Shown: piece by piece, positions 28,814 through 64,000 of the stretch
Layout of the letters: each line of letters starts with the position of its first letter
How positions within the stretch are numbered: position 1 is the stretch's first letter
Origin: Nitrospirota bacterium
GTDB taxonomy: Bacteria > Nitrospirota > UBA9217
Direction: 5' to 3'
NCBI GenBank assembly: GCA_035516965.1
Contig: DATIZR010000120.1
Coordinates: 967 to 64,966, forward strand
DNA: 64,000 nt
Program-made: the position numbers and the translations under genes
The notes under the pieces: model-generated
Seen by the model: only the letters and a program-made list of their open reading frames with translations
Databases searched by the model: none
Told to the model about the DNA's origin: nothing

Positions 28814-28864
28814 TCTCCGCGCGTGTTTAACGACGTTATTCCGCTCTCATAATTTTTCATTTCG

Positions 28865-28895: not shown

Positions 28896-28921
28896 AAGAG
28901 AATTTCCTGTCGTACATGCAC

Positions 28922-28949: not shown

Positions 28950-29021
28950 GTAATTTCTTAGCGTGATGATACGCAGGAGAACAAAAGATCGAAAGAATGC
29001 GGAGCCTGCATCGGAGAATCG

Positions 29022-33925: not shown

Positions 33926-33964
33926 AGTAACCTTCCGTTCTCCGTTCCGGCGATTTGCCCGGGG

Positions 33965-35891: not shown

Positions 35892-36168
35892 AGGCTTTGC
35901 CCCTTTACGGTCTGCGCTGATGACCAAACAAGTGCGAACAGAACGGGCGAACAAAATATTGCAACAGCAGTTGGTCTCAGCGTCGAACCGCAATACCTCT
36001 CATGACAGGCCCCGCTAGGGAGCTTGCCACATAGAGATAATTAAAATATAGATATCGAGATAGGTTTTGTCAAAAAGCCGACAAAGGGAAGCGATACTAA
36101 AGACTGAGGAAATATTCTGGGAATGATTATGTGAAGGGTTATGTTAACGATAGGATGCCATGCCGTTC

Positions 36169-45895: not shown

Positions 45896-45954
45896 AGGCC
45901 GGTTATTGTACACTCCCCTTTGTTCTTTGTCCATGGGTTTGGCCATCAAGGCCA

Positions 45955-47718
45955 TCAGAAGCGCGGACAGGTCCTGCAGGCCTCGGGAGGGTCATCACCT
46001 GTCATCCGCTGACGATGGTCTCTGAACACATCTCCATTCCATATCGCGGAGAGGGGCTGGGCAAGGAGATTTCCCGCCTTGATGCCGGGTTGGCAATCGC
46101 ACAGCGTTGCCTCGCCCTGGACATTGATGGGGATGGTCTGCCACGGCGAAGCGCACCAGGAGCGGCGTGATGACCGCATGTACAGCTGATCAGGAGGAAG
46201 CAGCAGGAACTTATTGTACCTCTTCCAGAGACCGAACTCCTCCAGCCCCCTCACGGAAAGAACGGGCAGGTTCTTCCGGAAAGCGCTGGATACGGCTGTC
46301 CGCAACATCGAGGCTGCATGTACGCTGCCGTTCTTCCAGAGCGTCCGCCCGATGTTTTCCCCGAAATTCAGGTCCGTCAGCATCATCACGTGAACGCCCA
46401 GGCCGGAGACGAGTTCCATGAGCAGGTCGAGCGAATCGATGGTTTCCGTCGAGACCGCGGAAAAGACGGCAATCGATATTTCCCTCGTGGAACGCGAGAT
46501 ATCGACGAACCGCCTTATGTTAGCAACCACTCGGGCAAGGTCCGTTCCGGGCCGTACCGCTGCGGCAAGGTCCTGAGTACCCGCGTCGATGCTGAATGCG
46601 ATCGATTCGAGACCCGCGTCAAGAAGACTGCGAGAGAGCCCTTCGTCCAGGAGCATCGCGTTCGTCACCAGCGCTGTTCTTCTTCCCCGGGATGATGCCT
46701 CCCGGACAAGATCCGCCACCTGCGGATGCATCAGCGTTTCGCCGAGGCCAACCAGTGTTACCCGATACGCATGCGGAAGCAGGTCGAGTATGGCGGAGAA
46801 GACTCCTTTCGGCATGTCCCTGGGATCGACGCCCCTCAGGGTGCGGGCGCAATGGACGCAGCGCATGGTGCACCGTGTGGTGATCTCGATGTTAGCGATA
46901 ACCGGCTCAGTCGGAACGATCGGACTGAGCCGGGACTGCTGACCGGCCGCGCTTTGTCCGCTGGGGCTCAGGGCAAGATGATGCGCGGAAAACGGCGACA
47001 CGTCAAGAAAACGGCCCGCTTCGGGTTCGACGGACAGGATGCGTTCTAGTACGGCCCTATCCTCGCGCGACGGCACCCGCACGACATCATCGATGGCCCT
47101 CGCAACAAGATCAACAGCAAGCGTGCAGTTCGGACCCTGCAAGACATCGTGTCCCGCGCCGGGGACGGTCGCCGCACGAACGGGTCCCCGGAAGTAGTCA
47201 CGCGACCAGTCTGCTGTATCGGCGCCAGGGACGAGCGCATCCCGCTCTCCCTGCAGGACAAATACCGGGAATGAACCCTTGAACCGGGATTTCCCGACTT
47301 TCTTGATCATTGAGACCATGGCCGCAACCGAGGTGAACGAAATCTGGCTCTTGCCTTTGCGGTGGTCCGACCATCGAGCGAAAGAGTTTGTGTCGATTTT
47401 TTTTGGAACGGAAGCAAGCACGAGCAGCAAGGGTTCTGCGCCCGTCTCCGCCAGCGCGTTCAGGGCAATGATGCCGCCGGTCGAGTGTCCGAAGAGCACG
47501 ATGTCCAGGCCCCGCTGCTGGGCGTCTCTGACTGCTTCGACCACGGACCCGGTAAAGGACCTCATATCGAAGGCGGGCACCCCGCGCGATGCATGACCCG
47601 GAAGCCGCACGGTTCGCACGGAATCCAGTCCTTTGCGCCCGCGAAGCGCATCGGCAAGGAGGGTAAGGTCGTCCGGGGACCCCGAGTAACCGTGGACAAG
47701 AATAACAGTGGCGGGCAC
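45955..47718 (-). CDS. fusion protein: alpha/beta hydrolase (N) + radical SAM/SPASM-like domain (C)
   Basis: 587 aa. N-terminal 'ILVHGYSGSPDD' with nucleophile elbow 'GHSTGG'. Residues ~283-290 'CTMRCVHC' (46849..46872). C-terminal Cys-rich 'CASPW...LCDCQP...EACRTCPRF'. Confidence 0.75.
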   Translation of the reverse strand: MPATVILVHGYSGSPDDLTLLADALRGRKGLDSVRTVRLPGHASRGVPAFDMRSFTGSVVEAVRDAQQRGLDIVLFGHSTGGIIALNALAETGAEPLLLVLASVPKKIDTNSFARWSDHRKGKSQISFTSVAAMVSMIKKVGKSRFKGSFPVFVLQGERDALVPGADTADWSRDYFRGPVRAATVPGAGHDVLQGPNCTLAVDLVARAIDDVVRVPSREDRAVLERILSVEPEAGRFLDVSPFSAHHLALSPSGQSAAGQQSRLSPIVPTEPVIANIEITTRCTMRCVHCARTLRGVDPRDMPKGVFSAILDLLPHAYRVTLVGLGETLMHPQVADLVREASSRGRRTALVTNAMLLDEGLSRSLLDAGLESIAFSIDAGTQDLAAAVRPGTDLARVVANIRRFVDISRSTREISIAVFSAVSTETIDSLDLLMELVSGLGVHVMMLTDLNFGENIGRTLWKNGSVHAASMLRTAVSSAFRKNLPVLSVRGLEEFGLWKRYNKFLLLPPDQLYMRSSRRSWCASPWQTIPINVQGEATLCDCQPGIKAGNLLAQPLSAIWNGDVFRDHRQRMTGDDPPEACRTCPRF

Positions 47719-50606: not shown

Positions 50607-50885
50607 TTACTTCTTGTTATCGTAGATGAAGTTGGCGATGGTATTGATGGAGTGGAATATCTCCTTGCCCTGATCCATGTTCTTGACTTCGACGCCGAAG
50701 TTCCGCTGCAGCAGCACGACGATCTCCACGGCGTCCAGAGAGTCGAGCCCGAGCCCTTCCCCGAAGAGAACCTCATCGTCCTTGATGTCCGCCGGTTTGA
50801 CATCCTCGAGCGAAAGATCGCGGACGATCATTTCCTTGAGGTCCTTGCGGATTTGCACCAGTTCCTGTTCCTTTGCTTCTGCCAT
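50607..50885 (-). CDS. acyl carrier protein
   Basis: 92 aa. Contains 'LGLDSLDAVEIVVLLQRNFGV'. Confidence 0.88.
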   Translation of the reverse strand: MAEAKEQELVQIRKDLKEMIVRDLSLEDVKPADIKDDEVLFGEGLGLDSLDAVEIVVLLQRNFGVEVKNMDQGKEIFHSINTIANFIYDNKK

Positions 50886-50969: not shown

Positions 50970-51869
50970 TCACTCATTGGAACGCCACATGTCGCGGAAC
51001 ACGAACCACTGGTATGGATAACGATCCGCGTAGTCTTCCAGGACGCGGGCATATTCCTGGACACAGGCCCTGATCTGTTCCTGCTTCTCCCTCGCTCTCC
51101 CGCGCGGCGGTTCGATCACGTGGGTGACGTCGGTCAGGTACTTCCTGCGCCCGACCTTCGCCGAGAGCAGTACGACTACGGGGCACTGGGCCGCGCCCGC
51201 GATCGTGAACGCTCCGTAGGGAAAGGAAACGGGTCCGCCCAGAAGCATGGCTTCCTGGGAACTGTACCCGTACGTCCGGTCCCCCATGATCGAAACAAGT
51301 TCGCCGCGGCTGATCGCCTTCATGGCTTCGACCACACCGCCCAGCGTGTCATCGGTGTGCAGGATGCGTATCGCACTCTGGTCCCGGTCGATGCCCAGCG
51401 ACTCCCGGACCGCGGCGTTGTCCTCTGGCCGCATCAGCAGGTGGACGGTCTTTCCCAGCCTCCGCAGAACGGTCATGGCCACCTGCCAGTTTCCAACGTG
51501 GGCCGTCAGCAGGACCAGTCCCTTCTCGCCTGAAAGGAGGCCCTTCAGCCGTTCCAGGCCCTGGATGTCGATCTCGATGCTTGTTCCGCCGGCAATCACG
51601 TAATACCGGTCGAGGAGGCTTTTGCCCTGGCTGACGAACAGCAGGTAAACATCGAGCAGCCGCCGGAGCCGGCCGTGGCCCGGGAACCGGCGGTTCACAT
51701 AAGCCAGGCTCGCCCTGACTGCAGGGCGGTCGAATGCCAGGTAGTAGAGCCCCACCAGGTACAGCAGGCCGTAGGCCCCGGCGAGTCCGGAGACGCGGAC
51801 CGCCGTTCTGAAGAACCAGAACCCGATCCTGTTCCCCCGCTTCCGGTCAGTTGCCCTTGCCTGCGACAT
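50970..51869 (-). CDS. lysophospholipid/lipid A-type acyltransferase (LPLAT, LpxL/HtrB-like)
   Basis: Start set at the ATG at 51869 ('MSQARATD'). N-terminal TM segment. 'LLTAHVGNWQVA' corresponds to the HxxxxD/E box of the family, with Q at the acidic position. Confidence 0.7.
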   Translation of the reverse strand: MSQARATDRKRGNRIGFWFFRTAVRVSGLAGAYGLLYLVGLYYLAFDRPAVRASLAYVNRRFPGHGRLRRLLDVYLLFVSQGKSLLDRYYVIAGGTSIEIDIQGLERLKGLLSGEKGLVLLTAHVGNWQVAMTVLRRLGKTVHLLMRPEDNAAVRESLGIDRDQSAIRILHTDDTLGGVVEAMKAISRGELVSIMGDRTYGYSSQEAMLLGGPVSFPYGAFTIAGAAQCPVVVLLSAKVGRRKYLTDVTHVIEPPRGRAREKQEQIRACVQEYARVLEDYADRYPYQWFVFRDMWRSNE

Positions 51870-53046
51870 AGACGTACCTTGCCTTCCGGATCGCAAGCGC
51901 GGCAAAGAAGACGATCGCGCCGGTCAGGAGGGCGAGGAGCGGCGCGATGACCAGCGAACCGAGAAGCCATTCATAGAGCCGTGCGGAGAACTGCTCGAAC
52001 ACTGTCTGGAACGAGAGATCGGTGAGCCATTGCCCGTGGCGCATATAGTATCCGACCTCGATGCAGAGCGCCGGCACCACGGGCGGCATCGCGATATGCT
52101 GGACGTTCAGGGACACGATCTTGTTCAGGTTCAGCCGCAGGGACACGTAGAGGATGACGAGCGAATGCACGAACAGAAGCGGCAGGACCGCCAGAAAGAC
52201 GCCAACTGCCGCGGACAGGGCAAGCCCCTCCGGAGTGGCGTTCTCCCTGATCAGCATCTTCAGCGCCTTCCCCGGGTGTCGCAGGAGGGAGAGGTTGAGT
52301 GCCGTTGCGGGCTTCACCAGTTTGTGATGCGGCACCGGCAGCAGTCGCCTGCCTACCAACATGGAATGGATGCCCGTGAGGCGAAGATTGTCCAGGAACG
52401 GCCGGAAGCTCGATACGCGCTCCCCGGGCTTCGGATAGCATACGGAGACGGGAACCGTTTTCAGCGTCAGTCCCGCCCAAGACGCCTTGGCAAGGACCTC
52501 GGCCTCGAAGTCGTAGCGGCTGCCCTTGAAGGTGAGCTGGTTCAGATAGCGGACCGGATAGGCGCGGAAGCCGCTCTGGCAATCATCAACCGTCACCCCG
52601 GTCTCCACCTTGAGCCAGAAGTTCGCGAAGGCCCTGCCGAACCTGCTCGAAGCCGGCACGTTCCCGGTATTGAAGTCCCGGGATCCGATGATGACGCTCC
52701 TGTCGTCCTCTTCGATTACCGGGAAAAACCGCCGGACATCGCTCGGGTCGTGCTGCCCATCAGCGTCGATGGTGATCATGAAGACGCCGCCGCGCTCCTC
52801 GATAGAGCGCGAGGCCGTGAGGATCGCCTGTCCTTTGCCGAGGTTCTTTTCGTGCTTCAGCATCACAACAGCAAGGCCGCCCAGCAGTGATGAGACGTCG
52901 GCATCCGTGCTGCCGTCGTCAACCACGATCACGTTTGAGAGCATGGCGAGGCATTGTTCCACGACGGTCCTGATGGTGGCCGCATTGTTATAGACCGGGA
53001 CCGCGATCCAGACGCGGCCGTCCGTGGCGTGCTTACTTAGGTGCAT
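51847..53046 (-). CDS. glycosyltransferase family 2 fused to a C-terminal polytopic (DUF2062-like) membrane domain
   Basis: ORF trimmed to the ATG at 53046 ('MHLSKHATDGRVWIAVPVYNN'). Contains 'VVDDGSTD' and 'TIDADGQHDP'. The C-terminal ~130 aa is hydrophobic. Confidence 0.75.
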   Translation of the reverse strand: MHLSKHATDGRVWIAVPVYNNAATIRTVVEQCLAMLSNVIVVDDGSTDADVSSLLGGLAVVMLKHEKNLGKGQAILTASRSIEERGGVFMITIDADGQHDPSDVRRFFPVIEEDDRSVIIGSRDFNTGNVPASSRFGRAFANFWLKVETGVTVDDCQSGFRAYPVRYLNQLTFKGSRYDFEAEVLAKASWAGLTLKTVPVSVCYPKPGERVSSFRPFLDNLRLTGIHSMLVGRRLLPVPHHKLVKPATALNLSLLRHPGKALKMLIRENATPEGLALSAAVGVFLAVLPLLFVHSLVILYVSLRLNLNKIVSLNVQHIAMPPVVPALCIEVGYYMRHGQWLTDLSFQTVFEQFSARLYEWLLGSLVIAPLLALLTGAIVFFAALAIRKARYVYVAGKGN

Positions 53047-54400
53047 GCCGCGCCCTCTCCTTGTTCTTCCCGGGAAGGAGCAGGTCCCACATCGGGCCCG
53101 TGTACCCGAGCTTGTGCAGGATCTGCAGGCTGTTGTCGTACGCGTCAGGCGGGAACACGCAGTGCCGCACACCTTCGAATGCCCTTGTCAGCCGTTCCTC
53201 AAGCTGCTTTTTGTCCACAGCGGGAGACAGATAGTAGACCGGATGGAGCATTCCTTCATCGGGCTTGATGAGGTTCTCCTTGACCGCGAGTCGGGCGAGC
53301 GGCGTGTCCGGGAGGATCCGGATCCCCATGAAGATGAACACGACGCATTTCTGCAGGGACAGGATGTTCCGAATGCCCTCCTCCACGGTCTCGGGCGTCT
53401 CGCCGGGCCCCCCGAACATAAAAAAGTGGGAAGTGGAGATTCCGTGGCGCGCGAACAGGTCATTGCATTCGATGACGTCCCGGAAGGTGAAGTTCTTGCC
53501 CATCTTCTTGAGCGTGGTGTCGCACGCGGCGTCGGCGCCTACTTCTGCAGCCGCGAAACCGGTCTTTTTCATGCGCTCCACGATCTCGTCGGTCAGCCCC
53601 CGGGGCTTGAAAAAACCCGTCCAGGGAATGGAGACGCTCCTGCGCTGCATCTCGTCGATCACCTCAAGGTAGGCACCCTCGTCATCATTGAAGACCGAGT
53701 CGACGAAGAAGAGGTATTTGGTCTTGAACCTGTCCCTGAGCAGCTCGATGTCGTCGACCACGGCCCGGGGCTCGCGCCGCCTGAGCTGCGAGCCTTCGAG
53801 CACGGGATAGGTGCAGTACACGCACTTATATGCGCAGCCGCGCTTCGTCTGAACGGACGCGATGTTGCCGCTGTGCAGATAGAACTCGAGCAGCCGTTCG
53901 TCGTACAGCGCCGACCCGATCCTGTCGCCGGCGATCCGCGCCGAGGGCCCGATGATAGGGTCGCGGGGATAGACACCCCGTGCCGCATTGTCCGCGAACT
54001 CGACGGCCAGGACCTCTCCCTCGCCGACGATGCCGTAATCCGCACCGGTCTCCTGCAGAATCAGCTCGGGGACCAGCGAGAAGCCGGCGCCGCCGAGCAA
54101 CACCTTTGCGGTCGATACCTTTTTCACCGTGGACACGATGTTCTTCACGTTCTGGATATAGTACTGCTCGCTCACGAGGTTCACATTGTCGATGTTGCGG
54201 ACCGAGATGCCGACGAGATCGGGCGCGTACTGCTTTACCTCGCTCCCGATGGCTTCGAGGGACGTCTTCTGCTGCAGAAAATCCGCCTGCAGGACCTCGT
54301 GGCCGGCATGGGTGAGGGCCGCCGCGATCATGCTCACGCCAAGCGGGTAGATCGGATAGGGAGACGTGGTCACATTCGCCGATATAAGAAGGATCTTCAT
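53033..54400 (-). CDS. B12-binding-domain radical SAM protein (lipid-cluster type)
   Basis: ORF trimmed to the ATG at 54400 ('MKILLISANVTTSPYPIYPLGVSMIAAALTHAGHEV'), which forms ATGA with the upstream stop. Radical SAM 'CAYKCVYC'. Confidence 0.8.
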   Translation of the reverse strand: MKILLISANVTTSPYPIYPLGVSMIAAALTHAGHEVLQADFLQQKTSLEAIGSEVKQYAPDLVGISVRNIDNVNLVSEQYYIQNVKNIVSTVKKVSTAKVLLGGAGFSLVPELILQETGADYGIVGEGEVLAVEFADNAARGVYPRDPIIGPSARIAGDRIGSALYDERLLEFYLHSGNIASVQTKRGCAYKCVYCTYPVLEGSQLRRREPRAVVDDIELLRDRFKTKYLFFVDSVFNDDEGAYLEVIDEMQRRSVSIPWTGFFKPRGLTDEIVERMKKTGFAAAEVGADAACDTTLKKMGKNFTFRDVIECNDLFARHGISTSHFFMFGGPGETPETVEEGIRNILSLQKCVVFIFMGIRILPDTPLARLAVKENLIKPDEGMLHPVYYLSPAVDKKQLEERLTRAFEGVRHCVFPPDAYDNSLQILHKLGYTGPMWDLLLPGKNKERARHAPK

Positions 54401-55668
54401 CGCGAGGTCCCCGTTACCATGTCCTTTTGCCACTTCCGCCGCCGCAGACGCGCCCCCTGGTAGGTGCCGTCCGCCTTTTCCTTCTCGATGACCTTCAGGA
54501 ACAGCTTCGCCATCCTGAGGTTCTGGCTGCTTTCCTGGTAAAAGGTGTCCCAGGCGTAGTAATAGAGGTCCTGAAGCCTGGACGGCGTCATCCTGGCCGG
54601 CTGATAGACCACCTTTCCTCCGGTGTAGTTCCGCCAGTCGTTCGACAGGATCCTTCCCTCCTTCGTCAGCGTTTCCCGGATCGGTGTGTGGGGGAACGGG
54701 GTCAGGATCGTGAACTCGGCAAGGTCGAGGTTGATCTCGAGCAGGAAATCCACAAGCCGCCTGATGTAGTCCTCGTCCTGTTCGTCGGTCCCCAGGATGA
54801 TCGTGCCCTCGACGCCGATGCCCCGCTCCTGCAGCCGCTTGACGCGGTTCCGGATGTAATCCGACGTGTCGAAGATCGCCTGGTACACGTACCAGCAGCC
54901 TGCCTGCGCCGCGAGATCCAGGATCTCGTCATTGTCCTTGATGGGATGGCAGACCCACTTCTTCTTGAGCGGGATCAGCGCCCGGAAGAGGTCTTTCTCC
55001 CACTGGTCGTTCTGCGCCATGGAGTTGTCCACGAAGAAGAGCCGGTTGTTGTCGATGGCCGCGACCTCGCGCACGACGTCGTCGATCGGCCTCGGACGGA
55101 ATTCACGTCCGCCGAGGAACGGCGTGCAGCACGGGAAACAGTTGAACCGGCAGCCGCGCGAGGCATGGATGAGGTCCACCATCTGGACGCCCCGGTAGTT
55201 GTACCGGTCGCGTTTGAGGATGTTCCGCCGGGCAGGGCCGACCAGCTTCATGTCCGGAAAATTCCACTGGTAGTCGTAGACCTTCCTGAGTTGTCCCCTC
55301 TTCAGGTCATCGATGACCTGGCCGAAACGGCCCTCTGCCTCGCCCAGGAACACGGCATCGGCGTGCGTCTTTGTCTCCTCGGCATGCAGCATGGTCCCGA
55401 TGCCGCCGAAGATGACCGGAACGCCTCTGCTCCGATAGCGGTCGGCGATCTCCCACCCCCTGGGGATCTGGCAAGTAAGCATGCAGGAGATGGCGACGAA
55501 GTCGACGGGTTCGTCGAAATCGATGTTTTCCACGTGCTCGTCGATAAAGCCCAGTTCGCAGTCGTCCGGCACAGTCGACGCAAAACAGATCGGCCCGTGC
55601 GGGGGGAGGTGAAATTCCGTCTGCCGTTCCAGTTTCGGCCATTGGGGGTATATCAGTTTAATCTTCAC
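54397..55668 (-). CDS. B12-binding-domain radical SAM protein
   Basis: 423 aa with a GTG start (GTGA overlap with the upstream gene). Contains 'VDFVAISCMLTCQ...VPVIFGGIG' followed by 'CRFNCFPC'. Confidence 0.75.
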   Translation of the reverse strand: MKIKLIYPQWPKLERQTEFHLPPHGPICFASTVPDDCELGFIDEHVENIDFDEPVDFVAISCMLTCQIPRGWEIADRYRSRGVPVIFGGIGTMLHAEETKTHADAVFLGEAEGRFGQVIDDLKRGQLRKVYDYQWNFPDMKLVGPARRNILKRDRYNYRGVQMVDLIHASRGCRFNCFPCCTPFLGGREFRPRPIDDVVREVAAIDNNRLFFVDNSMAQNDQWEKDLFRALIPLKKKWVCHPIKDNDEILDLAAQAGCWYVYQAIFDTSDYIRNRVKRLQERGIGVEGTIILGTDEQDEDYIRRLVDFLLEINLDLAEFTILTPFPHTPIRETLTKEGRILSNDWRNYTGGKVVYQPARMTPSRLQDLYYYAWDTFYQESSQNLRMAKLFLKVIEKEKADGTYQGARLRRRKWQKDMVTGTSR

Positions 55669-56336
55669 GCGAAACCTTTCCTGCTGCTCACGAAAGAGAA
55701 TTTCTGAATGATCCCCGTTACTTCCGGGGCTGACTGAACGATTGCCTGTGCAACGGGGAAACTGCAGAGATCGTCTGTTCGGCCGGTTCCCTCCGTTCCC
55801 ATGACCAGAAAGAGCGCTTCTTCTTCCCCGGCCGTTCCGGCAATCATGAAGGAAGCCTCCCGGTTCTCGATCATTTCAGCGGCCAGGTCGAGGAGCGGTG
55901 CCAGGGAATGGCCGCGGTCCGCGACATAGAACAGGGGGCCGAGGAGTCCGAACTGGATGGCCGCCTCGCCGAGCGGGCTCGAGGGCAGCGTGTAGATAAA
56001 AAGGTTCCCCCGGGACAGCGTCCTGCCGCCTTTTATGTAGTCCCTGAAATAGTCCAGGTCCGTGCGGAGCGATCCTTCCCGACTCGTGCCGATGAGGCCG
56101 ATGTCCCGTTTCTGCGGATCCTCGAACCCCGCGTCCCGGAGCGCGAGCGCCACGCCGGAGCATGCCATCCGCGAGAGGCGGTCGAAGCGTCCGAAGTTCT
56201 TGACGGGCCGGGGGAAAAGCTGGTCTCTCAACGAATCAGGGCCGGGTCCGCCGTCATAGATCGACCGCTCTTTCCGAACGATGCATCCGTACGCATCCTT
56301 CGTAAGCCAGCCTATGCCCTGTACGCTTATCGTCAT
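55665..56336 (-). CDS. half-size beta-ketoacyl synthase N-terminal-like protein (no catalytic Cys)
   Basis: 223 aa. 'MTISVQGIGWLTKDAYG' and 'MACSGVALALRDAG' resemble a KS N-terminal domain. No 'ACSS'-type nucleophile and no His-His region. Confidence 0.55.
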   Translation of the reverse strand: MTISVQGIGWLTKDAYGCIVRKERSIYDGGPGPDSLRDQLFPRPVKNFGRFDRLSRMACSGVALALRDAGFEDPQKRDIGLIGTSREGSLRTDLDYFRDYIKGGRTLSRGNLFIYTLPSSPLGEAAIQFGLLGPLFYVADRGHSLAPLLDLAAEMIENREASFMIAGTAGEEEALFLVMGTEGTGRTDDLCSFPVAQAIVQSAPEVTGIIQKFSFVSSRKGFA

Positions 56337-56387: not shown

Positions 56388-57509
56388 TCATGCCAGTACG
56401 ATCGCTGAATTGATGCCGCTGAACCCGGCATTCGTCACCAACGCATGCATACCCGTACTGACCGGTCTCAATCGGTCCGATACCCATCCCGCCGCATCAT
56501 CGTCGGGTGTGGTCAGGTTCACCGTTGGGGGGACGATCCCTTCCCGCAGCGCCCGCAGCGCCATGATCATCTCGACCAGCCCGGCAGCCCCCATGGTATG
56601 ACCGATGCCGCCTTTGATCGAGTATGCCGGGACTGCCGCGCCCGGGAAGACCTCCCGGAACGCCCGCATTTCCATGGCGTCGTTGTACACGGTCCCGGTG
56701 CCGTGGGCGCTGATGAACCCGATCTGTTCCCGGCCGACGCCGGCAGATGCCAATGCCTTTTTCAGGGCAAGGATCAGGCCTTCGCTCTCCCGCGACGGTC
56801 CGGTCATGTGATTGGCATCGTCGCTCAGTCCCCACCCGGCAATCTCGCCGAGCACCGGCATTCCCTCTCGCCGCGCCCGTTCCTCGCTCATGACAAGAGC
56901 GTATGCCGCGGCCTCGCCCACGCTCAAACCGGCCCTGCTCCGGTCAAAGGGCCTGGCCGGTGCCCGGTCGAGCGCCATGAGCGACGAGAAGCCGGAAAAA
57001 ATGAATTCCGTCACGCTGTCGCAGGCAACAACGAGCACCGCATCAGCGCGGCCGTTTTTGATCAGAGAGGCGGCCCGCGCTGCAGCGGCAGAGGATGAAG
57101 TGCAGGCTGCCGACATAACCATGCCCCCGCCGCGCGCCCCGCAGAGGTCTTCGACCTTGGTCAGGAGCCGGTCCAGGGTGCTGTCTTCCGGGTCTCCCCG
57201 GCCTTCGAGAACGAACCGCTCCAGGAGATCGATCTCTCCCTTGGTCGAAGCAAGCAGCAGCCTCGCATCAGCGGGGATCGCAGTCCCAGCATCCCTGAAG
57301 AGCATCCGGAGCATCTGCAGGACGAGCGAGCCGTCCCCGTTGTACTGCAGGCCCTGGACAATCCCCGCGCAGCCGGACTGGAAGGCCTCAGTCCTGAAGC
57401 GGGTGACCTGACCGATAGCCGTCCTGTTGTCAGTGACGCCTCTCCAGCAGGTATCCACACCAAGGCCGTAGGAGGTTACCATATCATGCGCGACAATGAC
57501 CGGTTTCAT
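56388..57509 (-). CDS. beta-ketoacyl-ACP synthase
   Basis: ORF trimmed to the ATG at 57509 ('MKPVIVAHDM'), ATGA with the thioesterase stop. Contains 'SAACTSSSAA', 'SAHGTGTVYND' and 'GIGHTMGAAG'. Confidence 0.82.
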   Translation of the reverse strand: MKPVIVAHDMVTSYGLGVDTCWRGVTDNRTAIGQVTRFRTEAFQSGCAGIVQGLQYNGDGSLVLQMLRMLFRDAGTAIPADARLLLASTKGEIDLLERFVLEGRGDPEDSTLDRLLTKVEDLCGARGGGMVMSAACTSSSAAAARAASLIKNGRADAVLVVACDSVTEFIFSGFSSLMALDRAPARPFDRSRAGLSVGEAAAYALVMSEERARREGMPVLGEIAGWGLSDDANHMTGPSRESEGLILALKKALASAGVGREQIGFISAHGTGTVYNDAMEMRAFREVFPGAAVPAYSIKGGIGHTMGAAGLVEMIMALRALREGIVPPTVNLTTPDDDAAGWVSDRLRPVSTGMHALVTNAGFSGINSAIVLA

Positions 57510-57991
57510 GGATGCTGGTGGAACTCTCCCGACTTCCATCTTTTCCTGACCCGCTCGATCAGTTCCGGAGATATGATGCAGGCCTCGCCGGTCCGGTGAT
57601 CCGTAAAGAGCTGGACCGTGTAGCCACTGGTGGCCACCGTGCCATCCCCTTTGAGCAGCTGGAATTCGGTGTTCAGCTTCGCTCCTTCATGCCAGATCAG
57701 AGATGCCCTGATCGTGAACTCCTCGTCCAGGAAGATCGGCCGGTAGTAGTCGATATGGAGGTCCACAATGGGCGCGCGGAGGCCCGCTTCGAAGAAGTCC
57801 CTGTAGGACAGTCCACACCGTCTTCCAAGCTCCTCGGATGCTTCCTCGAAGTAGAGCGGGTACCTGCCGTGCCACGCGATCGCCATCGGGTCGGCCTCAT
57901 TGAAGCGCACGCGACGTCTGATATCAACGACGATGGGAGCCGGCGCTCCGGCAATCCGCTCAAAATAGGTTGTCTTCCTCCGTGGTATCAT
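57506..57991 (-). CDS. 4HBT/YbgC-type acyl-CoA (or acyl-ACP) thioesterase
   Basis: 161 aa hotdog protein with 'VRFNEADPMAIAWHGRYPLYFEEA'. Confidence 0.75.
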   Translation of the reverse strand: MIPRRKTTYFERIAGAPAPIVVDIRRRVRFNEADPMAIAWHGRYPLYFEEASEELGRRCGLSYRDFFEAGLRAPIVDLHIDYYRPIFLDEEFTIRASLIWHEGAKLNTEFQLLKGDGTVATSGYTVQLFTDHRTGEACIISPELIERVRKRWKSGEFHQHP

Positions 57992-58000
57992 CGTCTCGTC

Positions 58001-58372
58001 TCAGTCGGTGAAGGCGACCCGCAATTTCAGTTCCGCAATCTTGGTGTCTCCCCGCGTGATCATCGTCTTGAACGTGAATTCGCCTGCATCGAGGACGTCA
58101 CTGCATGAGCAGGTGATCTCCTCGCCCGGGGCGACCGGCGCGAAGTATTTGGCAAGGACGACTTCCCGGAGCGCGGCATGCCGGTGCTTCGCCTGTTCCA
58201 GCGATGAGAGCGCGCATTGGATCTGGCATACACCGGGCAGGACCTTGTTGTCCGGGAAATGCCCCTGGAACCCGACGAAATCCGCGGGAAAGCGGAACCG
58301 GGACGTGACCGTCCGCTCCCGCGATTCCAAGGCGCTCATGCAGCGCACGATCTCAGCCTTCACCTTTGTCAC
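58001..58372 (-). CDS. FabZ/FabA-like 3-hydroxyacyl-ACP dehydratase
   Basis: 123 aa with a GTG start. Catalytic-His context 'FQGHFPDNKVLPGV'. Confidence 0.75.
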   Translation of the reverse strand: MTKVKAEIVRCMSALESRERTVTSRFRFPADFVGFQGHFPDNKVLPGVCQIQCALSSLEQAKHRHAALREVVLAKYFAPVAPGEEITCSCSDVLDAGEFTFKTMITRGDTKIAELKLRVAFTD

Positions 58373-59076
58373 TCGCGAATCTCCTTCTGCCGCACGATCA
58401 AGCGGTATCCGTTCCGGTAGTTCGAGAGAACAATGCCCATGGGATAGAGCCTGCCGTTCCTGCTCCGGTGCTCGTAATAAGATACCCTCCAGACAGCGCG
58501 GTGGTCTTCCCGGTACGTCTTGCTGGTCAGAGGCAGCCCCTCGCCGGAGAACTCATACTCCAGGGCCCCGTCGCCGGACCGCTGCCGGAACAGGATAGCC
58601 TGTCTCCTCTTCACCACACGTGCATCGAGCGAGGGTACGAGGTCCAGATAGATCCGCTTGATGTCCTCTGCGACCACTGACGCGATGTCCCCCTGTCGGG
58701 CCAGCGGTTCTATCATGTACTTGTGGGTCAGGCCGTTCCGGTCGCCTTCGAACTCTAAGATCTTGACGCCGAGGTAGTTCATGCAAACGACCTTGTATCG
58801 CCCGGCAGTGGTGTCTACATCGAGGTATCCGATCCCGGAAACGGAGAACCAATTATACTCAAAAACAATGGAGCTGAGCAAATGAAAATCATCGGGAACA
58901 GCTCTTCCGAACCGCTCCGCCACTGCCACAGGATCGGCATCGTCCACGGCGACTGGCGCCGCAGCGCGGAAGGGAACGGGCGAAGCGCAGCCAAACAGCA
59001 ATCCCGCAAGAAGCGCCGCCGGAACAATCGTTTTCACAGCGCCTGCTCCCGGTTTGCCGGCGTCAGGATGCTGCAC
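58369..59076 (-). CDS. lipoprotein (possibly DUF3261-like, as in aryl-polyene-type clusters)
   Basis: Lipobox 'LLAGLLFGC'. No enzymatic motif seen. The start is uncertain because the ORF overlaps the MMPL gene by 43 nt. The family name is a recollection. Confidence 0.5.
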   Translation of the reverse strand: MQHPDAGKPGAGAVKTIVPAALLAGLLFGCASPVPFRAAAPVAVDDADPVAVAERFGRAVPDDFHLLSSIVFEYNWFSVSGIGYLDVDTTAGRYKVVCMNYLGVKILEFEGDRNGLTHKYMIEPLARQGDIASVVAEDIKRIYLDLVPSLDARVVKRRQAILFRQRSGDGALEYEFSGEGLPLTSKTYREDHRAVWRVSYYEHRSRNGRLYPMGIVLSNYRNGYRLIVRQKEIRE

Positions 59077-61424
59077 AGCGACGGGACGACAATGACCGAG
59101 GAGAGGTAGCCCGTTGTCATGCAGATCACCATGGCGATGCTCGTCGAGTAGAACGCTGGATGCTTGGCAAAGAGGAGGACTCCAGCCCCGATGATGTTCG
59201 TCGCGGCCGACAGCGTCACGGCGACTACCGTTCCGATCCTGAGGTTGTACCGGTACTCATAGGTCATGCCGAGGCCGTAATCCACGATGACGCCGGTCGT
59301 CACGATCGCGGCGACGATATTCACCACGTTCAGGGGTATCTTGAAGATCGCCATGAAACCGATGAGCCACGTCACGCCCGTGATGACCGGGACCAGGGAG
59401 ATGAAGGCCTCCCGCCAATTCCGGAAGAAGAACCACGCCAGCACCACGTTGAACAGGAACGCGAGCGGTGCCAGGATCTTCGCTTCCCGGATCGTGAACG
59501 CCGATATGGAATCTGACAGCTTCCTGCCCGAAACGATGAAGGAGCCTGGATGGTCCCGTGCGATCGCGCTGAGAGCATCGACAGAGGACGGCTCGTCCGG
59601 AAAAAAGGAAAGGACCCTGCATGAATCGTCCCGGCGCACAACAAAGCGCTCCTGGATCCGCGCCACCATGCCGTTCGCATTATTATTTCCCGCGACCCGA
59701 TGGCTGTACAGCCCGCTGAAAAAGGGAGCGAAGGCCCGGTCCGAAAAACCGTATTGCGCCGAGGCCCGGCTGATCATGATCCGGAGCTTCGCTTCCCTGC
59801 CGGTCCGCCAAAAACTGTCCCAGCGCTGCGCATTCTCCCGTCTGGTCCTTTCCGACGCCCAGAACATCCCGATGTTCGTGAAATTCTCCGGGCCGACCAC
59901 CGCTGACGCTTCGCGGTACACGCGGTCATTCAGTTCCATCGCCTCTTCATAGGTCTTCGCCTGAACGACGAAGATCGCCTGGTTGCTCTTGCCTCCCCAG
60001 GTGTCGTGGAAGTTCTGCTCCGCCTTGAGGACCGACGGTTCGCTCCCGTCGAGTTTCTTCACGTCGCTGTCGAACTTAACCTGGAACGAGAATACGAGTG
60101 CCGCGGCGGTCAGGAGCGACCAGACGACAACGATCGTCCGGGCCGGCCAGCGGACCTTTTTCATCCGGTTGCCGATCGTCGGGTCCGACGCGAGGGAGTA
60201 CCGGTCCCAGGACAGGACGAGAGGAAGGACCGCGAGGGAGAGCCCCAGGCAGAGAAGCACGCAGAGCATCGAGAACAGCGACAGCTGATGGTATCCCCGG
60301 ATCACCGAGAAATAAAGCACGAAAAAGCTGAATACTGTGGTGATTGCGTCGATAGACACGAGCTTCGCGAGCTTCACCATCTGGGATGCGTCGGCTCCCC
60401 GCTTCATGGCTATGTAGACCAGAAGGCCGTAGTCGATCGAGATGCCGGCGATCGCCGTTCCGAACCCGATGACCAGGTAGGACAGCGTCCCCTCCGCAGC
60501 GCTCGTCAGGATGATCGACCAGAGTACAGCGATGATCGGGATGACGTAGACGAAGAAGACCCTCAGGTCACGAAAGACGACCAGGAAGAGAACCATGAAC
60601 GCGATCGAAGCGATCGCCGATGCGGTCTTGATGTCGCGGGTGATCACTTTTTCATTGCTCACCGTATGCAGGTGGCCGCCGATGACATCCGCGGTAACAC
60701 TCTCAGGCAAGCGCCCGAGCTCCCCTTCCAGCACCCGGAGGAGCTCTTTGCTCCGCTGGCTGTCCGTCATGGGAACAGAGGTCTGGGCGATCACCATCGC
60801 GTGGCGGCCGTCGCGGCTCACGAAGTGGCCGTCCTCGACGGCGACGTCGTAACCCATGGATGCGGGAAGGGCCTTTAGCTTTCCGTAGAGCAGCGACTTA
60901 ATCCCGAGCGGGTCCGTTCGGGAGAAGGATGCCGTGAAGATGCTCTCGGGCCGGAAGGACTGGAGATAGATCTGCTTGAGTTTTGCGGCAACGGCCGGCG
61001 GCGTGATCTCGTGGTCCAGCGCCGCCAGTTCATCCCCCGTCAGAACTTGCGGCGCATACTGGAGCACCGAAAACTCATCCATCGCGTCGGCCACGGAGAT
61101 GCCGGACATGACCTTGGTGAACAGCGGCGGCGTGAGCGCGGCGGACAGCTGGTCGACGGCGGAGAAGAGCTCTTTCTTTCCCTTTTCCGGGTCGTTCAAT
61201 GCAAGAGAAATGATGATCTTGTCGGACAGGTTCGATTCGCGCAGGAACTGCAGGCTCCTCGTGACTTCCGGGTCAGGGGGGAGCATGAGGTCGATGTTTC
61301 CTTCGTAGCGGATTAGGGTCAGCCCGGCAACGGCTGCCGCCGTGAAACACGCGATGATCAGCAGGACAAGCCGCTTGTGCGCCCGCGAGAGCTCAAAAAG
61401 GCGCGAAAAAAAGCGATCACCCAT
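59034..61424 (-). CDS. MMPL/RND-superfamily lipid exporter
   Basis: 796 aa. Two repeats, each made of a large soluble loop plus a hydrophobic bundle (for example 'IASIAFMVLFLVVF...', 'LAFLFNVVLAWFFF...'). Confidence 0.8.
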   Translation of the reverse strand: MGDRFFSRLFELSRAHKRLVLLIIACFTAAAVAGLTLIRYEGNIDLMLPPDPEVTRSLQFLRESNLSDKIIISLALNDPEKGKKELFSAVDQLSAALTPPLFTKVMSGISVADAMDEFSVLQYAPQVLTGDELAALDHEITPPAVAAKLKQIYLQSFRPESIFTASFSRTDPLGIKSLLYGKLKALPASMGYDVAVEDGHFVSRDGRHAMVIAQTSVPMTDSQRSKELLRVLEGELGRLPESVTADVIGGHLHTVSNEKVITRDIKTASAIASIAFMVLFLVVFRDLRVFFVYVIPIIAVLWSIILTSAAEGTLSYLVIGFGTAIAGISIDYGLLVYIAMKRGADASQMVKLAKLVSIDAITTVFSFFVLYFSVIRGYHQLSLFSMLCVLLCLGLSLAVLPLVLSWDRYSLASDPTIGNRMKKVRWPARTIVVVWSLLTAAALVFSFQVKFDSDVKKLDGSEPSVLKAEQNFHDTWGGKSNQAIFVVQAKTYEEAMELNDRVYREASAVVGPENFTNIGMFWASERTRRENAQRWDSFWRTGREAKLRIMISRASAQYGFSDRAFAPFFSGLYSHRVAGNNNANGMVARIQERFVVRRDDSCRVLSFFPDEPSSVDALSAIARDHPGSFIVSGRKLSDSISAFTIREAKILAPLAFLFNVVLAWFFFRNWREAFISLVPVITGVTWLIGFMAIFKIPLNVVNIVAAIVTTGVIVDYGLGMTYEYRYNLRIGTVVAVTLSAATNIIGAGVLLFAKHPAFYSTSIAMVICMTTGYLSSVIVVPSLCSILTPANREQAL

Positions 61425-62094
61425 GTCCTTTTACCTCGAAGCTGGAACTGTCCAGGGGAACGTTCAGGAGGGTGTTGAGGAAGATGATGGTCGTGACATC
61501 CCCGCTCACCTCCTTGATCCGTATCTGCTTGAGGTACTTCCCATCGTCCCGGAACGTGATCGTGATGCTTTTGATGACCTTCCTGGCCACGTTCTTCTCC
61601 TGCGGGACGAACTCGAGCACGAGGGGATCGTTCTGCACCTGCCGGATATCATTTACCGCGAGAAGCGACGAGTAGTCGCCGGAGAACCAGACCGTGATCT
61701 GGTTCAGCACATTCTGAAAGATTGGATTCTTCGCAAGAGATATTTCCTGCACCCTGTTCGTGTCCTCGTCCCACTGCCGTATGACCCTGTCCGTGATCAG
61801 GACCGAATAGCGTACCGGGGAATCGACATGCCAGGCGACCTTGTTCGGTTTTTGCAGATAGATCCGGCCTTTCATGACGAGCTTCTCCTTGAACATGGCC
61901 ATCTCTTTTTCCTGCAAAAAATCCGTCTTCAGCGTGGAGAAGTCGGAAACCCTCTTCCCCAGCTCGGCCAGGAACACCGCCATGTCGGGTTGCCCCCCGG
62001 CAGGTTTCTCGGATGCAATCAGCGTCACGGGAAGGTTGACGAACACCAGGAGGAGGATCGGCGCACAAAACTTCATCAGTTTTCGCAGGAGCAT
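61417..62094 (-). CDS. LolA-like periplasmic lipid/lipoprotein carrier protein
   Basis: Signal peptide 'FCAPILLLVFVNLPVTLIAS'. 'FLQEKEMAMFKEKLVMKGRIYLQKPNKVAWHV...IRQWDEDTN' is LolA-like. Confidence 0.62.
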   Translation of the reverse strand: MLLRKLMKFCAPILLLVFVNLPVTLIASEKPAGGQPDMAVFLAELGKRVSDFSTLKTDFLQEKEMAMFKEKLVMKGRIYLQKPNKVAWHVDSPVRYSVLITDRVIRQWDEDTNRVQEISLAKNPIFQNVLNQITVWFSGDYSSLLAVNDIRQVQNDPLVLEFVPQEKNVARKVIKSITITFRDDGKYLKQIRIKEVSGDVTTIIFLNTLLNVPLDSSSFEVKGHG

Positions 62095-63584: not shown

Positions 63585-64000
63585 GGGCTCTTTCTCTTAT
63601 CGACGAACCTGGTTAATTTCCGGGCATTCCCGGTGTAGACCTGTTTTCGCACTTCATCCTCGCTCGTGACGATCACTTCCGGCCTGACCCGCAGATGGAC
63701 CTGGAGCCTGTCCATGATCATCGCGGCAGTGCAGTCCTTGTCCTTCACCGCCACCGTGACCGTGATCCTGTCGGAAAGGTCGTAGTCGCTCGTCGCCGTA
63801 ACGTAGTATTCGCTGACTCCCGGGAAAGAATCGAGGACAGCATAGAGCGAGTTCGGGTAGAGCGTCGTCCCCCGGAACTTGATCATCTGCTTCTTTCTGC
63901 CAAGGATGGGACCGAGCCGGGGCGAGAACCTTCCGCAGGAGCATGGCTCGCCGGTCAGGAAACTGACATCGCCCGTCCGGAACCTGAACAGCGGCATTCC
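63581..64000 (-). CDS. phenylacetate-CoA ligase (PaaK)/F390-synthetase-family adenylating enzyme, C-terminal part only (gene runs off the window)
   Basis: 'FRFRTGDVSFLTGEPCSCGR...LGRKKQMIKFRGTTLYPNSL' is typical of the PaaK-family C-terminal region. ATGA overlap with the next gene (63581..63584). Confidence 0.7.
   Translation of the reverse strand, partial: GMPLFRFRTGDVSFLTGEPCSCGRFSPRLGPILGRKKQMIKFRGTTLYPNSLYAVLDSFPGVSEYYVTATSDYDLSDRITVTVAVKDKDCTAAMIMDRLQVHLRVRPEVIVTSEDEVRKQVYTGNARKLTRFVDKRKSP

Follow-up and report, generated by a model that had tools for sequence, protein, structure and literature searches.

Two dissimilar B12-type radical SAM proteins at the core of an operon resembling aryl polyene clusters in a Nitrospirota bacterium

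Aryl polyene (APE) lipids are made by gene clusters of Gram-negative bacteria (bioRxiv 10.1101/2020.12.19.423268). The operon described here resembles those clusters in its PaaK-like adenylating enzyme, acyl carrier protein (ACP) and pairs of ketosynthase (KS) and chain-length-factor-like (CLF-like) proteins, and further in its ApeI-like and ApeP-like dehydratases, 4HBT thioesterase, LpxL-type acyltransferase, GT2-DUF2062 protein, LolA and MMPL exporter. To our knowledge, radical SAM genes are absent from classical APE clusters, which rely on an ordinary methyltransferase. In contrast, the present cluster encodes two B12-type radical SAM proteins, rSAM-A and rSAM-B, as well as a SPASM radical SAM-ApeP-like fusion. 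Similar clusters were first noted in 2009 beside candidate ladderane genes (Rattray et al. 2009; PMC2649909), with reports of them from Geobacter, Pelobacter and Desulfotalea. By gene kinds, our cluster is like the candidate ladderane clusters of Kuenenia stuttgartiensis, with pairs of FabF-like and inactive FabF-like proteins, ACPs, radical SAM enzymes, a phenylacetyl-CoA ligase, a glycosyltransferase and a B12-radical SAM enzyme. However, its genes are ordered differently from those in the published Kuenenia lists, and the host is most similar to Nitrospirota, whereas Kuenenia is an anammox bacterium. Anammox Planctomycetota are the only known source of ladderanes, and only there is a product of this cluster type known (PMC9902471). 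The antiSMASH label for the cluster class is 'ladderane'.

The nearest characterized relatives of rSAM-B, in both sequence and fold, are TsrM, a tryptophan 2-C-methyltransferase (PDB 6WTE/6WTF), and BzaD, an enzyme of the anaerobic B12 lower-ligand pathway for which TsrM-like methylation of an sp2 carbon has been proposed (PMC12931638). In structure, rSAM-A comes closest to AprD4, a radical SAM 1,2-diol dehydratase (PDB 6FD2) that does not bind cobalamin (PMC12931638). The NCBIfam family TIGR04072 (rSAM_ladder_B12), named 'lipid biosynthesis B12-binding/radical SAM protein', covers rSAM-B but not rSAM-A. No experimental paper on either protein family was found in the literature.

The window analyzed is a stretch of 64,000 nucleotides, and the features that concern us are as follows.

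57506..63997, minus strand: upstream part of the operon
56388..57539, minus strand: FabF-like ketosynthase KS383, 383 aa, with Cys-His-His present (SAACTSS, NHMTGP, SAHGTGT)
55665..56336, minus strand: short KS-like protein of 223 aa, matching just the N-terminal ketoacyl-synt domain (24.6 bits); syntenic in related loci
55665..55668, minus strand: GTGA, where the stop codon of the KS-like gene overlaps the start codon of rSAM-A
54397..55668, minus strand: rSAM-A, 423 aa; B12-like Rossmann domain and radical SAM domain
54397..54400, minus strand: ATGA, where the stop codon of rSAM-A overlaps the start codon of rSAM-B
53033..54400, minus strand: rSAM-B, 455 aa; TIGR04072 member with B12-binding and radical SAM domains
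51847..53046, minus strand: GT2 glycosyltransferase-DUF2062 fusion, start ATG 53046-53044
50970..51905, minus strand: LpxL/lysophospholipid-type (Lip_A) acyltransferase
50607..50885, minus strand: acyl carrier protein
43659..45955, minus strand: second KS (413 aa) and CLF-like protein (352 aa)

In transcription order, the upstream part begins with a PaaK-like AMP-ligase, truncated by the window end, and continues with the SPASM radical SAM-ApeP-like dehydratase fusion, LolA, an MMPL-type exporter, a 235-aa protein, an ApeI-like dehydratase and a 4HBT thioesterase. The ApeI and ApeP Pfam matches are below cutoff in the window, but significant in the P. propionicus orthologs. The cluster ORFs that were scanned yielded neither a ketoreductase nor a conventional SAM methyltransferase domain, and the lack of the former makes the nature of the chain uncertain. 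The KS-like protein is probably a CLF-like partner of KS383.

The ORFs place both radical SAM genes where the first-pass annotation had put them, directly after the KS and KS-like genes, and the two four-nucleotide junctions it described are present. At the GTGA junction, the GTG start of rSAM-A (55668-55666), with a Shine-Dalgarno-like stretch (AGGAAAGG) 5′ of it, overlaps the KS-like TGA stop (55667-55665); at the ATGA junction, the rSAM-B ATG (54400-54398) overlaps the rSAM-A TGA (54399-54397). This ATG at 54400, rather than a GTG at 54433, is likely the rSAM-B start, since the alignment to the TIGR04072 model begins at residue 2 of the resulting protein. The end of rSAM-B overlaps the GT2-DUF2062 gene by 14 nt, while KS383 and the KS-like gene are separated by a gap of 51 nt. 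With the ORFs as listed, 13 of the 24 operon junctions overlap, thus overlap is nothing special to the KS-radical SAM block, and the fixed stoichiometry that had been read from these codons is an overstatement.

rSAM-B matches TIGR04072 over the whole model with 624 bits (cutoff 360), its homologs are annotated likewise, and on these profile scores it is a bona fide member; a lipid-associated B12/radical SAM model of the kind the first-pass annotation suggested exists. The Pfam B12-binding (PF02310, 67.9 bits) and Radical_SAM (PF04055, 72.1 bits) domains are both far over cutoff. Its CX3CX2C motif, CAYKCVYC (residues 189-196; C189/C193/C196), has cysteines that are invariant in 67/67 orthologs. 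Cobalamin-domain motifs have been described for OxsB, TsrM and TokK (PMC9204698), and in rSAM-B they are conserved as G64-x-S66-x-R68, GG103-104 and GE; the G-x-S/T-x-R motif is shared with TsrM, in which the Arg sits under the cobalt. The predicted structure is moderate (pLDDT 68.5), with TsrM as the top structural match (TM 0.74-0.78) as well as the best PDB sequence match (117 bits). Apart from its own family, the highest-scoring models are BzaD (203 bits, cutoff 450) and TsrM (141 bits, cutoff 500), and these scores lie too far below the cutoffs for function to be transferred from either. rSAM-B also differs from TsrM in being ~120 residues shorter and in its lipid/polyketide context, as opposed to the thiopeptide and cofactor synthesis of TsrM and BzaD. 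Further, Glu273 of TsrM (DSEFN) is replaced by Val in rSAM-B (DSVFN), so that this ligand is missing, and the Val is kept in rSAM-B orthologs and in the distant TIGR04072 members inspected. According to the TsrM structure paper, Glu273 reportedly caps the unique iron and underlies a non-radical mechanism.

rSAM-A did not match any curated family in Pfam/NCBIfam model searches. Its Pfam B12-binding (31.1 bits, cutoff 32.1) and Radical_SAM (28.1 bits, cutoff 29.5) scores have significant E-values but are marginally sub-cutoff, so the expected domain pair held above threshold for rSAM-B and fell slightly short for rSAM-A; with 48.7 bits against 360, it is not a member of TIGR04072. Nevertheless, its orthologs are 65-87% identical over ~8 phyla, making it the best-conserved protein in the cluster. 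The cysteines of its CX3CX2C motif, CRFNCFPC (residues 173-180; C173/C177/C180), are invariant in 77/77 orthologs, and C66, C181 and C258 are further invariant cysteines. The AlphaFold model (pLDDT 83.7) aligns along its whole length with radical SAM structures of class B type, with Foldseek matches in the order AprD4 (TM 0.76, E 4e-16), MgmA, TsrM and CysS (TM 0.58-0.63 for the last three). Identity to AprD4 is only 16-18%, and in sequence the two can be matched over the radical SAM domain alone. Unlike AprD4, rSAM-A keeps invariant residues at the cobalamin-motif positions (A59-x-S61-x-M63, GG88-89, G109-E110), and its N-terminal domain aligns in sequence to the cobalamin-dependent MgmA. These comparisons and the model confirm the fold of a radical SAM protein of B12-type (class B) architecture, as had been proposed for both proteins. 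Cobalamin use by rSAM-A is putative, because the top structural match works without cobalamin and the Pfam B12 score is sub-cutoff.

The two proteins had also been described as paralogs, which their comparison does not bear out. BLASTP aligns 148 aa of the two with 27% identity, and a profile comparison gives 23% across 328 columns. Of all pairings among the window's four B12-type radical SAM genes, theirs is the least similar, and each is closer to the other two than to its neighbor. On this basis we place them in different subfamilies and do not regard them as a duplicated pair. Cluster gene order is syntenic over 80 related loci, and the cluster type is widespread in anaerobes from many phyla. 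rSAM-A is followed by rSAM-B in 71 of the 80, with the 4-nt overlap kept in 61 of these 71, and only 2 loci lack rSAM-B after rSAM-A despite room for it. The KS-like/rSAM-A junction most often has a 4-nt overlap (35 loci); GT2-DUF2062 follows rSAM-B in 69/80, and the ACP, likely the carrier of the radical SAM substrate, is 58-87% identical in nearly all. Across many phyla, TIGR04072 members are found beside genes for a KS, an ACP, a thioesterase and an acyltransferase. Those of Desulfovibrio, Ferrimonas, Marinilabiliaceae and Victivallales belong to clusters that have no rSAM-A, and some clusters of this sort are also without the KS383/KS-like pair. Since rSAM-B-type proteins occur in many such clusters, the two enzymes are no iterative duo, contrary to the stepwise modification by consecutive paralogs that was first suggested.

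Taken together, sequence and synteny identify rSAM-A, rSAM-B, GT2-DUF2062, the acyltransferase, the ACP and the two KS/CLF-like pairs as the conserved core of an APE-resembling operon, whose product is probably an outer-membrane lipid. Based on relatives and context, we envisage that the PaaK-like ligase would load a starter acid onto the ACP and that the KS/CLF pairs, with the ApeI/ApeP-type dehydratases, would build an unsaturated chain. rSAM-B would carry out methylcobalamin-dependent C-methylation of an sp2 carbon on a thioester-bound intermediate, either in an aryl head group or in a polyene, probably by genuine 5′-deoxyadenosyl radical chemistry, since the cluster-blocking Glu of TsrM is replaced by Val. 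On the same intermediate, rSAM-A may perform a second, chemically different radical step, be it a further alkylation or a C-C/C-H transformation in which its additional invariant cysteines take part. The acyltransferase and GT2 would move the product to a lipid or glycolipid anchor, and the LolA and MMPL proteins would finally export it. Carrier-bound substrates are plausible by analogy, as PDB entry titles show that CysS and TokK were crystallized with pantetheinylated substrates and as the SPASM radical SAM domain is fused to an ApeP-like dehydratase.

The original proposal was that rSAM-A and rSAM-B work successively on the ACP-bound chain as it is elongated, with methylation or cross-linking at unactivated sp3 carbons in the manner of HpnP-type lipid methylases and in fixed stoichiometry with the KS and KS-like proteins. 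Overlapping codons do join KS-like, rSAM-A, rSAM-B and GT2 and are conserved; moreover, the fusion to an elongation-cycle dehydratase and the pantetheinyl-bound substrates of CysS and TokK fit such a scheme. We nevertheless consider it unlikely. The two proteins are not close paralogs, rSAM-B occurs without rSAM-A and sometimes without this KS pair, codon overlap is general in the operon and is broken by the gap after KS383, and the HpnP analogy fails on scores of 37-56 bits for hopanoid methylase models (cutoff 650) and on the sp2 carbons methylated by BzaD and TsrM, the nearest relatives of rSAM-B.

The structural match to AprD4 and the sub-cutoff B12 score would also suit a cobalamin-independent rSAM-A with a vestigial Rossmann domain, leaving rSAM-B as the only B12 user. 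Such an enzyme might catalyze dehydration, reduction or rearrangement on a hydroxylated chain or on a sugar/aminosugar head group; GT2 follows directly in the operon, aryl-polyene lipids bear a galactosamine-phosphate-glycerol head group, and the extra invariant cysteines are possible hydrogen donors. This too seems improbable, given the invariant A-x-S-x-M, GG and GE residues, the alignment to MgmA, the confinement of the AprD4 sequence match to the radical SAM domain and a score of 26 bits against the AprD4 NCBIfam model (cutoff 500). Finally, the pair, or rSAM-A alone, might cyclize a polyunsaturated chain or cross-link it through C-C bonds, as proposed for ladderane and GDGT-ring synthesis, to give a cyclized lipid in non-anammox anaerobes. 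The family model name, the early association with candidate ladderane genes, the existence of non-methylating class B enzymes (BchE, HpnJ, OxsB, ThnL) and the extreme conservation of rSAM-A with its three additional cysteines speak for this. However, the restriction of ladderanes to anammox Planctomycetota speaks against it, D. psychrophila, which has a similar cluster, showed no ladderanes and no ring lipids, and the characterized class B enzymes are mostly methylases. We regard it as a distant prospect.

We are thus highly confident of the identity and genomic context of the two enzymes, and it is quite probable that they have distinct, non-redundant jobs. That rSAM-B is a methyltransferase has about an even chance, while the specific sp2 target is rather doubtful. 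Our favored reading, in which a carrier-bound chain undergoes two non-redundant tailoring reactions, C-methylation by rSAM-B and a different radical step by rSAM-A, is a tentative one whose chemistry we infer from relatives and context. Methylation of a phenol ring needs only an ordinary methyltransferase, as in the aryl-polyene pathway of E. coli, so the recruitment of a B12-radical SAM enzyme hints at harder chemistry. The TIGR04072 family and the cluster class were already known; rSAM-A represents an unnamed and unusually conserved family.

Our analysis has shown that rSAM-A and rSAM-B, two adjacent genes predicted to encode B12-type radical SAM enzymes, belong to different subfamilies, and that in the subgroup of clusters carrying rSAM-A the two are nearly always paired. 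They are located as follows:

54397-55668, minus strand: rSAM-A, 423 aa, GTG start
53033-54400, minus strand: rSAM-B, 455 aa when started at ATG 54400

The first-pass annotation had proposed that these genes are translationally coupled to each other and to the ketosynthase (KS) genes before them through an ATGA at 54397-54400 and a GTGA at 55665-55668, and both junctions were confirmed in the DNA. The rSAM-A/rSAM-B junction reads 'cgcgATGAag', with the ATG of rSAM-B at 54400-54398 and the TGA of rSAM-A at 54399-54397. Upstream, the junction with the gene for KS-like, a 223-aa protein, reads 'gcGTGAag', with the GTG of rSAM-A at 55668-55666 and the KS-like TGA at 55667-55665; AGGAAAGG lies just upstream of this GTG. 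The ATG start of rSAM-B is supported by its alignment to the family model TIGR04072, which begins at residue 2 of the 455-aa protein. However, codon overlap is general in the operon (overlapping ORFs, as listed, at 13 of 24 junctions) and is not peculiar to these genes, and a 51-nt gap separates KS-like from KS383, a 383-aa ketosynthase. The coupling itself had been rightly recognized at first reading. On its other side, rSAM-B overlaps the GT2-DUF2062 glycosyltransferase gene (GT2) by 14 nt. The mechanically called GT2 ORF (51847-53172, minus strand) opens at a GTG at 53172 inside rSAM-B, and the conserved protein (MHLSKH...) opens at ATG 53046-53044. A scan for promoters and terminators between 50.5 and 58.5 kb gave no signal above chance, which together with the overlaps indicates that the block is part of one tightly packed operon. 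This minus-strand operon extends from the window end at 64000 to approximately 36 kb. Beyond it (25739-35993, minus strand) are genes for DUF5752, a TreT-like trehalose synthase and two alpha-amylase-family proteins, then aspartate carbamoyltransferase and dihydroorotase, and this ordinary metabolism places the cluster boundary near 36 kb. Long ORFs also lie antisense to rSAM-B (53024-54463, plus strand, 479 aa) and rSAM-A (54427-55707, plus strand, 426 aa). Their translations have a high content of Arg, Pro, Gly and Asp, and the genes on the other strand are strongly supported; both ORFs are shadows that arise in GC-rich DNA rather than genes.

Both proteins had been assigned to the B12-type radical SAM enzymes at first reading, and this assignment was borne out. 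From its sequence, rSAM-B is clearly placed in the radical SAM superfamily and, as a predicted cobalamin-dependent enzyme, in class B. It matches the Pfam B12-binding (PF02310, 67.9 bits) and Radical_SAM (PF04055, 72.1 bits) domains, and its CX3CX2C motif (C189/C193/C196) is invariant in 67 of 67 orthologs. A check against lipid-associated B12/radical SAM models had been suggested for the pair, and such a model matched one of the two. rSAM-B is a member of NCBIfam TIGR04072 ('lipid biosynthesis B12-binding/radical SAM protein', short name rSAM_ladder_B12), scoring 624.2 bits against a curated cutoff of 360 over model positions 1-442 of 443, whereas rSAM-A, at 48.7 bits, falls outside the family. 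Other models scored below their cutoffs with rSAM-B, namely those for BzaD (TIGR04385, 203.5 bits, cutoff 450), TsrM (TIGR04428, 141 bits, cutoff 500), BchE (68, cutoff 481), HpnJ (61, cutoff 577.6) and HpnR (56, cutoff 650). No B12 lower-ligand genes were found in the gene context of the pair. TsrM is the best solved relative of rSAM-B by sequence (117 bits, both domains aligned) and the best fold match of its structural model (TM 0.74-0.78), the model being of moderate quality (pLDDT 68.5). R68 of rSAM-B aligns with R69 of TsrM, the arginine under the cobalt. Glu273 of TsrM reportedly caps the unique iron of the cluster; in the alignment this residue (DSEFN) is replaced by V236 in rSAM-B (DSVFN). 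With that iron ligand absent, a TsrM-type polar (non-radical) methylase was rejected for rSAM-B, and the valine suggests normal radical initiation.

For rSAM-A the case for a B12-type radical SAM enzyme, drawn from sequence and a predicted structure, is good, although less direct than for rSAM-B. Its Pfam scores are just below the cutoffs, with PF02310 at 31.1 bits (cutoff 32.1) still significant and PF04055 at 28.1 bits (cutoff 29.5) having an E value of 2.7e-6; most of its homologs carry a precomputed PF02310 match. The CX3CX2C motif (C173/C177/C180) is invariant in all 77 orthologs. No NCBIfam model came near its cutoff, the best being TIGR04013 (56 bits vs 251), and scores against BzaD (20 bits), HpnR (37), HpnJ (49) and BchE (30) were below cutoffs of 450, 650, 577.6 and 481, respectively. 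In a good AlphaFold model built with 56 homologs (pLDDT 83.7, pTM 0.82), residues 1-125 form a beta-alpha Rossmann domain that leads into a partial TIM barrel. A Rossmann-type domain predicted to bind cobalamin, as noted at first reading, is present in both proteins. Motifs that contact cobalamin have been defined from the OxsB, TsrM and TokK structures (PMC9204698) as G/A-x-S/T-x-X on the beta3-alpha3 loop, GG on beta4 and GE on alpha5. Their counterparts are A59-I-S61-C-M63, G88-G89 and G109-E110 in rSAM-A and G64-I-S66-V-R68, G103-G104 and G116-E117 in rSAM-B; all are invariant or nearly so, and the two sets are in register in an hhalign profile alignment. A Foldseek search with the rSAM-A model returned full-length matches to AprD4 (top, TM 0.76), MgmA, TsrM and CysS. 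Since AprD4 has a related domain yet binds no cobalamin (PMC12931638), cobalamin use by rSAM-A is considered likely only.

Three further cysteines of rSAM-A, C66, C181 and C258, are also invariant in the 77 orthologs. In the model, C66 opens the helix that follows the cobalamin loop, C181 comes immediately after the cluster motif (forming a Cys-Cys pair, 180-181) and C258 is on a barrel strand. They might serve a second cluster, donate a hydrogen atom or contact cobalamin. MiaB/RimO-type methylthiotransferases, which need three cysteines in the N-terminal domain, were seen among the Foldseek matches; rSAM-A is unlikely to be one of them, with just one extra invariant cysteine in that domain.

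The pair had also been described as tandem paralogs, and this does not hold except in the loose sense of a common architecture. BLASTP aligned rSAM-A and rSAM-B at 27% identity over 148 aa, and hhalign at 23% over 328 columns (96.7% probability). Two further B12-type radical SAM genes, termed C and D, are present in the window:

39139-40632, minus strand: B12-type radical SAM gene C, closest model HpnR (236 bits vs cutoff 650)
36169-37602, minus strand: B12-type radical SAM gene D, closest model HpnJ (185 bits vs cutoff 578)

The four proteins share 22-27% identity pairwise, and rSAM-A and rSAM-B are the weakest pair (40 bits vs 71-94 bits for the others), and a recent duplication was rejected on this ground. 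As members of different subfamilies, the two give no indication of having arisen by duplication as an iterative pair. C and D flank an AMP-binding ligase gene at 37599-39053.

Comparison of 80 related loci showed a conserved gene order of AMP-ligase, SPASM-type radical SAM/ApeP fusion, LolA, MMPL, small protein, ApeI-like dehydratase, thioesterase, KS, KS-like, rSAM-A, rSAM-B, GT2, acyltransferase, ACP, KS and CLF-like. rSAM-A is the best-conserved protein of the cluster. rSAM-B directly follows it in 71 of the loci, with the 4-nt overlap kept at 61 of these 71 junctions, and is absent in only two loci with enough sequence; GT2 follows rSAM-B in 69 loci. Orthologs of rSAM-A share 80-87% identity in Nitrospirota, Geobacterales and Pelobacter propionicus, and 65-71% in Omnitrophota, Verrucomicrobiota/Kiritimatiellia, Planctomycetales, Desulfobacterales, Elusimicrobia and Brevinematales. 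The best hits of the window point to a Nitrospirota-like bacterium as its source. When a library clustered at the 50% identity level was searched, about two full-length representatives of the orthogroup remained, and the next relatives formed a large, unnamed clade at 32-40% identity. Relatives at approximately 50% identity also occur among KS, ACP and thioesterase genes in nine loci, only one of which has a rSAM-B-like gene, not adjacent to that of the rSAM-A relative. The cultured P. propionicus DSM 2379 carries the whole operon (CP000482.1, 959866-981134), with rSAM-A (about 969866-971134) at 81% identity and rSAM-B at about 971147-972502; here the two genes are 12 nt apart and do not overlap, a polysaccharide deacetylase gene follows ACP, and a PlsC-type acyltransferase gene precedes AMP-ligase.

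The family of rSAM-B is distributed more widely. With a degenerate pattern for the cluster motif of TIGR04072, at least 120 matches were obtained; among those listed, TIGR04072-type genes were found in Desulfovibrio, Ferrimonas, Bacteroidales, Spirochaetota and others, and no anammox genome was among the 80 matches listed. Four of the proteins passed the TIGR04072 cutoff (383-638 bits). The usual neighbors of these genes are acyltransferase, KS, thioesterase and ACP genes, and rSAM-A is absent in most cases. rSAM-B is thus the general lipid-cluster enzyme and rSAM-A an addition in one subgroup, a distribution that also goes against an iterative pair. The lipid-type setting noted at first reading was confirmed, as KS, CLF-like, ACP, thioesterase and acyltransferase genes adjoin the rSAM-B-family gene both here and in more than 150 loci.

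The cluster resembles aryl-polyene (APE) clusters in its PaaK-like adenylating enzyme, ACP, KS and CLF-like pairs, ApeI-like and ApeP-like dehydratases, 4HBT thioesterase, LpxL-type acyltransferase, GT2-DUF2062, LolA and MMPL exporter. All APE gene types tested are present in the operon and syntenic. In the window the ApeI-like (20.1 vs 28.5) and ApeP-like (23.4 vs 27) matches are below their Pfam cutoffs; both are significant in the P. propionicus orthologs. In the scanned ORFs of the 36-64 kb region, no SDR/ketoreductase domain was detected. APE clusters produce polyene acids attached to a lipid anchor (bioRxiv 10.1101/2020.12.19.423268). While looking for ladderane genes, Rattray et al. 2009 (PMC2649909) came upon clusters of a similar kind in Kuenenia, Desulfotalea, Geobacter and Pelobacter, and the antiSMASH 'ladderane' class was built on that study. 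Later surveys (PMC9902471) found such clusters in many non-anammox phyla, expressed in nature and with no known product, and no new lipids were obtained when the Kuenenia genes were expressed heterologously. We found no experimental work on the rSAM-A or rSAM-B family in the literature, and only genome-mining mentions of TIGR04072 and of such clusters in Geobacter, Nitrospirota and Desulfobacterota.

Seven radical SAM genes are present in the window between 36 and 64 kb. Those not yet described, with two neighboring features, are:

62094-63584, minus strand: SPASM-type radical SAM and ApeP-like hotdog dehydratase fusion, 496 aa
49030-50529, minus strand: radical SAM gene of the HemN/ChuW-HutW-like kind (class C type), next in line after the ACP gene (50607-50885), in approximately 5 of 80 loci
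47721-48944: GT1 glycosyltransferase adjoining the hydrolase-SPASM fusion, accessory, in 3 of 80 loci
45955-47718, minus strand: alpha/beta-hydrolase (thioesterase-like) and radical SAM/SPASM fusion, 587 aa, accessory, in 2 of 80 loci
40738-43277, minus strand: 441-aa ORF with no Pfam or NCBIfam match, then a PF12831 FAD-dependent oxidoreductase

The SPASM/ApeP-like fusion is a nearly constant feature of the related loci, also occurs in P. propionicus, and physically ties a radical enzyme to an elongation-cycle dehydratase. The other radical SAM genes (HemN/ChuW-like, hydrolase-SPASM fusion, C and D) are accessory, each occurring in 2-5 of the 80 loci (C and D in three each). Jaw5, a polyketide cyclopropanase, is of the same class as the HemN/ChuW-HutW-like enzymes. 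The 441-aa ORF and oxidoreductase gene follow the second KS/CLF pair in at least 20-24 related loci and are therefore probably part of the conserved cluster.

The identities of the two enzymes and their gene context are established, and their non-redundancy is well supported. The chemistry that we infer for the pair begins with the nearest characterised relatives of rSAM-B, BzaD and TsrM (203 and 141 bits). Methylation by TsrM takes place at an sp2 carbon, and the same is assumed for BzaD (PMC12931638). The scanned cluster ORFs gave no match to an ordinary methyltransferase domain. In the reading that we prefer, rSAM-B would C-methylate an sp2 carbon of an ACP-bound aryl or polyene intermediate, and rSAM-A, with its three further invariant cysteines and a clade near the models of the non-methylating BchE and HpnJ, probably performs a different radical step. 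Action on carrier-bound substrates is plausible given the precedents of CysS and TokK, and the SPASM/ApeP-like fusion points the same way. The first-pass annotation had instead envisaged that both enzymes modify sp3 carbons on-line, stepwise on the ACP-bound chain and in the manner of HpnP. Such modification may take place, and the analogy with HpnP itself is not supported: the HpnR scores of both proteins are low, no HpnP model was among their NCBIfam matches, and the cluster offers no squalene-hopene cyclase context.

Two other readings depart from this preferred sp2-methylation scheme. The top fold match of rSAM-A raises the prospect of an AprD4-like, cobalamin-free role, which may be exerted on a sugar head group, whereas the conserved contact motifs are those of cobalamin-binding enzymes. 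Ring-forming chemistry may also be involved. In the fullest form of this reading, rSAM-A would be a non-methylating cobalamin enzyme in which C66, C181 and C258 help to form C-C bonds or rings by radical chemistry, the substrate being a polyunsaturated chain attached to a carrier, and the operon would produce modified, possibly cyclised outer-membrane lipids of a class not yet known. We regard this combination as a long shot. If it were true, its carriers would be Nitrospirota, Geobacterales, Desulfobacterales, Omnitrophota, Verrucomicrobiota and other anaerobes, and the operon would be a tractable model for the long-unsolved ladderane-type chemistry.

Radical SAM chemistry on fatty-acid/polyketide-type lipids is almost unexplored, and a 2026 review gives only the ladderane candidates and Jaw5. 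Enzymes of this kind have already been named yet are uncharacterised, so our result is a useful one that widens a known puzzle and does not open a new one. What it adds is the conserved pairing of rSAM-A with rSAM-B, together with the unusual conservation and extra cysteines of rSAM-A, which has no curated family. In conclusion, this operon type is widespread in anaerobes and is routinely called 'ladderane' by genome-mining tools; its constant core, a coupled pair of two different B12-type enzymes, provides a sharper target list than the family name, and P. propionicus DSM 2379 is a cultured and sequenced carrier.
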